Shown: positions 21,609-22,374 of the stretch, piece after piece
How positions within the stretch are numbered: position 1 is the first letter of the stretch
Layout: each line of letters begins with the position of its first letter
Origin: Rickettsiales bacterium
Lineage (GTDB): Bacteria > Pseudomonadota > Alphaproteobacteria > Rickettsiales > JABSSG01
Assembly: GCA_018062985.1 (NCBI GenBank)
Contig: JAGORE010000001.1
Coordinates: 12,661-76,660 of the forward strand
Reading direction: 5' to 3'
Length of the DNA stretch: 64,000 bases
Made by a program: the position numbers and the translations under genes
Notes under the pieces: model-generated
Seen by the model: the letters and a program-made list of their open reading frames with translations, nothing else
Database searches by the model: none
Told to the model about the DNA's origin: nothing

Positions 21609-22082
21609 ATGTTTATGAGATCACCATTTTATGGACAATGGCAAGCAAAAAGAGCTGCAGAAAAAGAAAAAGCTGCTAAACTAGAGAATGCTGCTGGGGC
21701 ATCTAACGGCGGCAATTGGAATAACGGTACTGGTACAGATTCTGGTAGTAAGTGGTTTCAGTGGTTTAATGCGATTGACGAGGCTTTTGATCCACGTACT
21801 TGTTTATATAAAGAATCTCCAGCGCATACCGGAAGCAATAAGCACAAGAGCCGCGCACCAACAGATGGTCAAAAGAACTTGCCTAATTCATATAGATTCT
21901 CAGAAAGTGGCAGAGTGTCTGTTGACTTAGATAATACTGAGATTATAATATACAGAAGAGAGCGGCCGAATGTTTATCATGGCTATGTTGTGACGCCTGA
22001 AGTGTTGCGTTCTCGTGAAACAAGGGCCCATGCCTTGCTTTATAAACTTAAAATGGTAGATAAACGTGGAGAAATCATATAA
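21609..22082 (+). CDS. orphan toxin module C (157 aa; toxin domain of unrecognised family)
   Basis: Intact ORF beginning with the shared MFMRSPFYGQWQAKRAAEKEKAAKLENAAGASNGGNWNNGTGTDSG linker. Overlaps the downstream immunity gene by 17 nt. Independent expression is unproven and no SD was seen. Confidence 0.6.
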   Translation: MFMRSPFYGQWQAKRAAEKEKAAKLENAAGASNGGNWNNGTGTDSGSKWFQWFNAIDEAFDPRTCLYKESPAHTGSNKHKSRAPTDGQKNLPNSYRFSESGRVSVDLDNTEIIIYRRERPNVYHGYVVTPEVLRSRETRAHALLYKLKMVDKRGEII

Positions 22083-22374
22083 TAACACTGGTTCGGTAGA
22101 GTTATGCTGCAAAAAGATGAGCTTTGCTGTCAACAAAGAGCATATCATTGATCACGAAGATAATGTAAGAAATTATAATATACGTGGCAGAAAAAGAAAT
22201 TATAATATAGCATACTGCCCATGGTGTGGAAAAGATCTTGGTAAAGCATTAAATTGGGAATATTTTGAGATCTTAGCAAAAGAATATGGGATTGAAGATC
22301 CTGATTTTGTAAATTTTACTAATGTTCCAGAAGAATTCAAAACAGATGCATGGTGGAAAAAGCGCGGTCTTTAG
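22066..22374 (+). CDS. Cys4 putative immunity protein, cassette C
   Basis: 102 aa. CCKKM...YCPWCGKDLG...NWEYFEILAKEYGIEDPDFVNFTNVPEEFKTDAWWKKRGL. Confidence 0.65.
   Translation: MEKSYNNTGSVELCCKKMSFAVNKEHIIDHEDNVRNYNIRGRKRNYNIAYCPWCGKDLGKALNWEYFEILAKEYGIEDPDFVNFTNVPEEFKTDAWWKKRGL

Follow-up and report, generated by a model that had tools for sequence, protein, structure and literature searches.

Within a 64,000-nt stretch of a Rickettsiales metagenome-assembled genome (MAG; contig JAGORE010000001.1 of GCA_018062985.1, positions 12,661 to 76,660; hereafter designated the window), an array of toxin and immunity genes (locus tags KBC27_00200-00220) contains two tandem cassettes, C and D, each consisting of a toxin gene, whose product resembles the C-terminal CdiA toxin (CdiA-CT) of structure 5T87, and a downstream gene of the DUF6980 family, presumed to encode the immunity protein. 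We found that C and D constitute a recombination mosaic, in which diverged alleles of a 225-nt block, encoding the end of the toxin and the beginning of the immunity protein, lie inside recently homogenised flanks. With moderate confidence, we regard this block as a specificity module within the mosaic, the role in specificity being one that we infer from sequence.

Cassettes C and D were aligned at a fixed offset of 835 bp, no indels being needed, and all two-breakpoint partitions of 21583-22433 were scanned by maximum likelihood. The best breakpoints delimit the block at 22023..22247 (+) in C, covering toxin residues 139-157 (hereafter the tail) and immunity residues 1-61 (the N-half), with its counterpart at 22858..23082 (+) in D. 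The cassettes differ at 66 of the 225 nt inside the block and at 10 of the 626 nt outside it, with a likelihood ratio of 137 for the block versus a maximum of 18.9 among 200 permutations (Fisher p = 2e-31). In the preliminary description of this DNA, the block had been placed at 22023-22217; the 5' edge was exact, but the 3' edge lies 30 nt further, at 22247 in immunity codon 61, six codons past the CPWCG motif. The three 5' substitutions reported there (21612, 21623, and 21998) are all present, although a further one at 21605, upstream of the ATG, had been missed; these four are the only differences in 21583-22022. At the protein level, the toxins were confirmed to be identical at residues 3-138, and the immunity proteins are identical at residues 62-102 (the C-half), with 9 of the 19 tail residues and 21 of the 61 N-half residues differing. 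The tails read, as had been claimed, RAHALLYKLKMVDKRGEII in C and GAYALLFKLDIVGKNGKIK in D, and a toxin remnant in cassette A carries a third tail, GAHALLRKLKIVDKNGEIK, together with a third immunity N-half. The word hypervariable, however, was too strong for a block that is 71% identical, that is free of indels, and in whose immunity frame third codon positions account for half of the differences.

The kind of divergence in the block was evaluated from the synonymous (dS) and nonsynonymous (dN) distances between C and D, estimated by the Nei-Gojobori method. Toxin residues 1-138 gave a dS of 0.023 and a dN of 0.003 (dN/dS, 0.13), the tail 0.78 and 0.30 (0.38), immunity residues 1-61 1.25 and 0.26 (0.21), and immunity residues 62-102 0.21 and 0 (0), so that synonymous sites are near saturation in the block and the toxin body is barely changed. 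The dN-dS analysis suggested in the preliminary description separates the segments sharply in dS (block, 0.8-1.25; toxin body, about 0.02; immunity C-half, 0.2), supporting its view that the flanks were homogenised and indicating that the block is older and evolves separately, but it gives no sign of an accelerated diversification of the block: dN/dS is 0.2-0.4 for C and D and below 1 in all 15 pairwise comparisons of tail and immunity N-half. The block differences consist of 39 transitions and 27 transversions, the bases on the C side being A 24, C 20, G 14, and T 8. The block is ordinary old divergence, mainly under purifying selection, and neither the product of local hypermutation nor of a recent burst of amino-acid change. 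Because such old divergence lies beside a nearly unchanged toxin body, recombination is needed to explain the cassettes. Moreover, the two flanks differ in age, with 2 of 88 synonymous sites changed in the toxin body versus 4 of 22 in the immunity C-half (Fisher p = 0.014); apparently, the flanks were homogenised in separate events, or the toxin-side crossover fell right at the block edge.

Comparison with relatives located the homogenisation further. Among C, D, and a metagenomic cassette designated L004, DNA identity is 94-99% in the toxin core and 93-97% in the immunity C-half, and the immunity N-halves are mutually 62-71% identical. The flanks of C and D are 99% and 97% identical to each other, as compared with 94% and 93-94% to L004, the closest outside relative, which agrees with homogenisation inside one genome; within the block, the distance is the same whichever two of the three are compared. 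Cassette A was compared with L001, a syntenic locus beside the same cytochrome bc1 genes, whose main gene ends in a 5T87-like toxin followed by DUF6980; here the DNA identity is 96% in the immunity N-half, 87% in the tail, and only 77% in the C-half. The tail of L004 is C-like, with 16 of the first 17 residues the same and 5 of 60 nt differing in 22007-22066, and the divergent stretch of this pair is confined to immunity residues 1-45, between 22067 and about 22200. The limits of the block therefore vary by pair, the immunity N-half being divergent in every pair of non-identical cassettes, and the tail moves with the N-half in some pairs but not in others. C and L004 also have in common immunity residues 46-61 (…YNIAYCPWCGKDLGKA; 22200-22247) in addition to the tail, and differ strongly in residues 1-45. 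In about 10 pairs, tail residue 145 (Y/F/R) varies together with immunity residues 47 and 49; this hints at a possible contact between the tail and the strand immediately ahead of CPWCG, but shared descent confounds the signal.

The same three-tier pattern was found in L086 (GCA_020049755.1, JAHZTO010220021.1), an unrelated array of two tandem cassettes of a more distant subtype. Its toxin cores differ at 3 of 218 nt (dS 0), divergence starts abruptly inside the tail after ...DAYALLR, and the ensuing block, with 83 differences in 219 nt and a further 7 gap columns (dS 1.58, dN 0.39), ends six codons beyond CPFCG. In the immunity C-half, 11 of 127 nt differ (dS 0.25). In comparison with C and D, the 3' edge of the block is at the same place and the 5' edge lies seven codons later. 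Recurrence of the pattern in L086 makes a one-off accident of a conversion tract unlikely. The segment may be kept distinct by selection, or the two conserved edges may be recurrent crossover points; probably, both hold. The toxin core is younger than the immunity C-half in both tandem pairs (dS 0-0.02 versus 0.21-0.25; segments compared, 21609-22022 versus 22249-22371 for C/D and 709-926 versus 1146-1272 for L086). The L086 record is a seemingly eukaryote-type assembly of more than 220,000 contigs, and the cassette array probably comes from a symbiont or contaminant in a host genome project; one of its gene calls, P0128 (L086 594-983), reads an in-frame stop as Q (…GKIK*FVEDK).

The toxin partner was assigned by both sequence and structure. 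Residues 81-135 of toxin C match 5T87_E, the CdiA-CT of Cupriavidus taiwanensis (phmmer, E = 9.7e-5), and an AlphaFold model of toxin C based on a 60-sequence alignment (pLDDT 88.3) superposed on the 5T87 toxin chains in Foldseek with a probability of 1.00, a target-normalised TM-score of 0.83, a root-mean-square deviation of 1.9 A, and 32% identity. The superposition spans the entire 75-residue chain, tail included, and the domain agrees with cd20695 (CdiA-CT_5T87E-like) in both sequence and fold. Weak structural matches to RelE/ParE-like folds raise the suspicion that the toxin may act as an RNase. In the model, the 19-residue tail is predicted, with high confidence, to belong to the toxin domain, as a helix (138-146) followed by short strands. 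Across the family, which comprised 152 cluster representatives at E <= 1e-3, L144, V150, G154, K155, and I156 of the tail are near-invariant. The nine differences between the C and D tails (residues 139, 141, 145, 148, 149, 151, 153, 155, and 157) fall mostly on family-variable positions, the exception being residue 155, usually K in the family and E in C; the tails agree at A140, L144, K146, V150, K152, G154, and I156. Charge is altered by five of the nine tail changes and by several of the immunity changes. Among the 150 representatives listed, the 5T87-like stretch is nearly always C-terminal, in proteins of 59-1978 aa, one with a PT-HINT pre-toxin domain and one (1852 aa) with a SecA_DEAD-like region. 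In the last of these, P0127 (L002 29-4969), the N-terminal part matches the SecA P-loop domain as well as SecA_DEAD, and a 5T87-like tip plus DUF6980 lies at the end; such a protein is an uncommon vehicle for a polymorphic toxin tip. Orphan cassettes lie downstream of it. Scans of genome and metagenome contigs with the toxin alignment found no relatives.

DUF6980 was recognised in all four cassettes, the immunity proteins of A, B, C, and D scoring 32.8-52.9 bits on PF22400, for which the gathering cut-off is 27. Residues C14, C15, C51, and C54 and the WWKKRGL motif are invariant, and the four cysteines suggest a putative zinc site. In 120 members, residues 16-50 are variable and the last 13 residues, EFKTDEWWKKRGL, are nearly invariant. 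The model of immunity C (pLDDT 86.6) predicts a disordered N-terminus, a helix at 16-23, three strands at 28-47, and then helices; it had no Foldseek match in the PDB, and a 54-sequence profile searched against the PDB gave only chance-level matches at E <= 10. A literature search found no paper mentioning DUF6980. The family comprises more than 900 clusters, mostly in intracellular bacteria. Its loci lie mostly in Rickettsiales, Midichloriaceae, Holosporales, Dependentiae/Babeliales (TM6), Chlamydiales, Coxiellaceae, Caedibacter, and Paracaedibacteraceae, and these obligate intracellular or host-associated lineages point to toxin warfare among symbionts in one host cell.

DUF6980 is associated with more than one kind of toxin. 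In Ac37b (L005; CP009217.2, 1-10306), it follows three tips, namely, a 5T87-like one, LysM plus PF09000 (colicin-E3-like), and a third type, and in 79 GTDB loci (L006-L084) the upstream tips are mostly either E3-like (motif D..H.D.E[VA]) or of a 'WWSKD..HGG...KHK' type. Three of 10 representatives of the E3-like tips match PF09000, one of them above the cut-off. None of the 79 GTDB loci has a 5T87-like toxin upstream of DUF6980, and the genes downstream of the distant 5T87-like toxins P0130 and P0142 are not DUF6980. As DUF6980 with its invariant C-half serves several toxin folds, the toxin-specific part must lie elsewhere, and the variable N-half is the obvious candidate, at which we arrive by inference. 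The classical E3 immunity family (Cloacin_immun) is unrelated to DUF6980, which, judging from gene order, looks like an alternative immunity family for E3-like toxins.

C and D possess the same 5T87-fold toxin core and the same DUF6980 C-half, with anciently diverged alleles of the 225-nt segment in between, encoding the last helix and strand of the toxin (19 aa) and the DUF6980 N-half that holds the four invariant cysteines. The flanks became alike recently, through either gene conversion inside the genome or a duplication after which one copy took up a foreign block by crossing over at the conserved edges ...VLRSRET and CPWCG...LN-EY. In the mechanism that we favour, the variable N-half of DUF6980 would recognise its toxin, and the family-variable, presumably surface-exposed positions of the terminal helix would be part of the recognised surface. 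The alleles would be kept apart because a mismatched toxin and immunity protein would be lethal or useless and because rare specificities would be favoured, so that allelic lineages would grow deep while their flanks recombine, in the manner of the colicin and pyocin immunity regions. The proposal in the preliminary description that the block is the specificity interface gains from its position on the variable half of DUF6980 and on mostly family-variable tail positions, but not from any signal of diversification.

Several points weigh against the block being a specificity module. No positive-selection signal was detected, dN/dS being below 1 throughout, with low power at 19 and 61 codons. In L004, a C-like tail stands next to an immunity N-half that departs strongly from that of C in residues 1-45, so that the tail is not always swapped, and the co-variation between tail and immunity N-half that had been noticed at first is not strict; the about 11 toxin/immunity pairs of the C/D type are too few for a co-variation statistic. 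Furthermore, the interface in 5T87 is not transferable, because that complex uses an unrelated immunity protein. The immunity role of DUF6980 is presumed from gene position, and the array comes from a metagenome assembly.

A rather unlikely alternative is that the cassettes arose neutrally, by recent tandem duplication or conversion, with the block either left uncovered by the tract or imported once and with edges set by whatever conservation permits crossover; ImmC and ImmD would then protect against each other's toxin, and specificity would not depend on the tail differences. Such an origin agrees with the dN/dS of 0.2-0.4 and the lack of an excess of amino-acid changes, with breakpoints at stretches conserved in all cassettes (e.g., CGTTCTCGTGAAAC and TGYCCATGGTGTGG), and with limits that vary by pair, C and L004 differing from 22067 to about 22200 only. 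It does not readily explain, however, why the mosaic of tail and immunity N-half repeats in the unrelated L086, why the immunity N-half is always the divergent part in non-identical cassettes, why the block coincides with the region that is variable family-wide, or why the tail changes spare the conserved positions. An assembly artefact, in which two strain alleles of one cassette were joined in tandem, might be suspected from the MAG source and from the near-identical 440-nt repeats, which are hard to assemble, but is very improbable: the C-D junction is a complete junction repeat like those of A-B and B-C, both immunity proteins are on record on three contigs, and tandem arrays of the same design are present in L002, L005, and L086.

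Positive selection acting in place on a recently duplicated cassette, the scheme of Riley's two-step colicin model, would also cluster the differences in the toxin 3' end and the immunity gene, and colicins E3/E6 and E2/E9 show this clustering (PMC4548480). It is very improbable for C and D, in which dS is higher in the block than in the toxin body by a factor of about 40-60 (0.78-1.25 versus 0.023), half of the immunity-frame differences are at third positions, and dN/dS is below 1; it is disfavoured because selection cannot raise dS that far. Least credible of all is targeted hypermutation by a diversity-generating retroelement (DGR) or a local mutator, with a template and a variable copy. 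The sharp edges of the block between otherwise identical repeats would be expected from it, but the mismatches involve all four bases and are enriched at third positions, in place of the adenine-specific pattern of a DGR target, and related block alleles exist in other genomes (A with L001, and the C tail with L004). DGR-type mutagenesis was rejected on the substitution spectrum.

Beyond the reading of the block as a specificity module, we tentatively consider that DUF6980 may be a two-part, re-targetable scaffold of intracellular bacteria, composed of an invariant C-half (…EFKTDEWWKKRGL) and an exchangeable four-cysteine N-half. The exchanged unit would sometimes include the last helix of the toxin, exchange would take place at two conserved DNA junctions, and the family would be a natural specificity library for at least three unrelated folds, namely, 5T87-like, colicin-E3-like, and the 'WWSKD..HGG' type. 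If so, C/D and the two L086 cassettes (L086a/b) would be minimal specificity swaps, in which only 9-12 tail residues can discriminate. If the block sets specificity, C/D and L086a/b would be natural minimal pairs, their cores identical, their C-halves identical or nearly so, and their differences confined to a 19-residue tail and a 61-residue N-half, and a few chimeras could map toxin recognition by the widespread, uncharacterised DUF6980. The finding also documents diversification of toxin arsenals in Rickettsiales-like bacteria at two nested levels, by whole-tip replacement and by sub-module exchange. The principle is already established for colicins, pyocins, contact-dependent inhibition (CDI), and Rhs systems; new here are the mapped edges, the two minimal pairs, and the pairing, among intracellular bacteria, of DUF6980 with toxins of the 5T87-like and E3-like types.

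The closest parallel to the mosaic is found in nuclease colicins. Riley (1993) reportedly described clustering of substitutions in the colicin toxin 3' end and the immunity gene; such clustering is present here, and a dN/dS above 1 is not. In the colicin/pyocin DNase-Im complexes, a variable immunity-protein exosite and helix II of Im take part in 'dual recognition' (PMC4548480), and in these systems, as here, a short variable stretch at the toxin 3' end and in the adjoining part of the immunity gene lies between a conserved catalytic core on one side and a conserved portion of the immunity protein on the other. This stretch is held to set specificity in colicins and pyocins, recombination and selection both being invoked (PMC4548480), whereas in the present cassettes the folds are unrelated, a positive-selection signal is lacking, and specificity is deduced by sequence comparison. 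The rCRCT/CRCA-3a modules of Rickettsia share the toxin type (cd20695), the occurrence in Rickettsiales, and the arrays and lone antidotes (PMC9111745; bioRxiv 10.1101/2023.02.26.530123). The haemagglutinin-like toxin pair of Ac37b fits the description in the preprint (bioRxiv 10.1101/2023.02.26.530123) and corresponds to L005, the antidote of which is DUF6980; the within-cassette mosaic, the assignment to DUF6980, and the pairing with E3-like toxins are not described in the passages of those papers that were consulted. The CdiA-CT/CdiI pair of 5T87 itself is alike in the fold of the toxin domain and unlike in the immunity protein: CdiI has no sequence relation to DUF6980 detectable by sequence search or profile, so that the cassettes do not represent a pairing with a 5T87-type CdiI.

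The locus as a whole is a polymorphic-toxin gene with displaced orphan tip/immunity cassettes. On one strand, a full-length toxin gene for 638 aa (17916..19832, +) is followed by a small gene (19848..20156, +) and by cassettes A, B, C, and D, giving five pairs of toxin tip and small gene, in four of which the small gene is DUF6980; the toxin stop and the immunity start overlap by 17 nt in A, C, and D. Behind a conserved pre-toxin junction, the main protein carries a different C-terminal toxin domain of its own, and the protein matched no Pfam family above threshold and no haemagglutinin, VENN, Rhs/YD, or PAAR model. Its orthologues in L001 and L003 have a common N-terminal part and junction, '...ALESGFV(L/F)ET(M/I)FMRSP(F/L)YEQFKAKRAA...', after which the C-terminal domains differ. 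Repeats D7 and D9 connect 19388-19481 of the main gene with the N-termini of the orphan cassettes. Between cassettes lies a junction repeat (22375..22443, +, between C and D; repeat family D2), with other copies starting near 20734, 21552, and 23210, which is a silent copy of the main-gene coding sequence '...SPVVVESALESGFVLET' just 5' of the cassette ATG; junction repeat and cassette start together read SPVVVESALESGFVLET-MFMRSPFY, as before the toxin tip in the full-length proteins of L001 and L003. Tandem arrays of like design are present in L002, L005, and L086.

Orphan cdiA-CT/cdiI arrays were reportedly described by Poole et al. (2011). Such arrays, and those of rhs-CT/rhsI, are located downstream of CDI and Rhs toxin genes (PMC4927057; PMC3967940). 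Like the present locus, they consist of a full-length toxin gene and then same-strand tip/immunity pairs with pre-toxin homology, some truncated or frameshifted, and recombination can redeploy or displace the pairs. In contrast to them, the main protein here lacks a known delivery domain, the junction is ...ALESGFVLET/MFMRSPFY, and a second, finer mosaicism exists inside one toxin type. The main protein does not qualify as CdiA, having no Fil_haemagg or other family match and a different junction motif, CdiB not having been searched for in the rest of the window; the literature describes Rickettsiales as without CdiB. As no recognisable delivery domain (haemagglutinin, Rhs, or other) was found in the main protein, we do not class the locus as CDI.

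The small gene behind the main toxin gene is presumed to be the cognate immunity gene of the main C-terminal domain and is not DUF6980. Neither its 102-aa product nor the main C-terminal domain matched a family in Pfam or NCBIfam; the two genes are kept as a pair in L003 (L003 703-1778), the main gene of which carries the same tip as that of the window, with the A remnant next. The main C-terminal domain contains …ISHLPQLRQEYIKEV…GDPLGPTVEHLRSEGKTWEEIIASACREGGRGLPGTKI, and with the 102-aa partner it may possibly form an undescribed toxin/immunity pair. Cassette A comprises a 5T87-like toxin remnant (20328..20441, +; repeat family D4), 5'-truncated to the last ~37 codons, with its tail encoded at 20382-20438, and an immunity gene (20425..20733, +; DUF6980, PF22400, E = 2.3e-8); the truncation is old, because L003 shows the same truncation point. 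Cassette B encodes a colicin-E3-type 'Cytotoxic' domain (20825..21233, +; PF09000 in the two-frame translation, E = 3.5e-7, 30.9 bits versus a cut-off of 22), broken by a -1 frameshift in an A-run near 20985, where the intact relative P0004 has AAAACA and the window AAACA; this could mean that the gene is a true pseudogene, that the run is slippery, or that the assembly is wrong at this point. Its immunity gene (21234..21551, +; full-length match to DUF6980, PF22400, E = 4.5e-14) is intact despite the frameshifted toxin.

Cassettes C and D are both intact. Toxin C (21609..22082, +; 157 aa) consists of a junction peptide and the 5T87-like C-terminal domain (residues ~81-157), its database record P0001 beginning at Met3 and not at the first ATG, and the GTG start of immunity gene C (22066..22374, +; 102 aa; DUF6980, PF22400, E = 8.9e-9) overlaps the last 17 nt of the toxin gene. 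Toxin D (22444..22917, +; 157 aa), the same as C at residues 3-138, is followed by immunity gene D (22901..23209, +; DUF6980, PF22400, E = 8.2e-8). A consensus scan gave its best promoter-like match in the locus, close to the sigma-70 consensus, at 21922..21949 (+; TTGACT-16-TATAAT, 11/12), with a second copy in cassette D (22757-22784, +). Each match falls within the conserved toxin core and precedes the immunity start by ~115 nt, and the -10 hexamer is kept in L001, L002a, and L004. The matches might act as internal promoters for the immunity genes, of the kind present in nuclease colicin operons; they are a lead and no proof of function, because conserved residues (VDL...EIIIY) are encoded by the same bases. 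Beyond the cytochrome bc1 genes, an open reading frame for 1247 aa at 26214-29957 (-) has a C-terminal region resembling pentapeptide repeats and may encode an effector-like protein.

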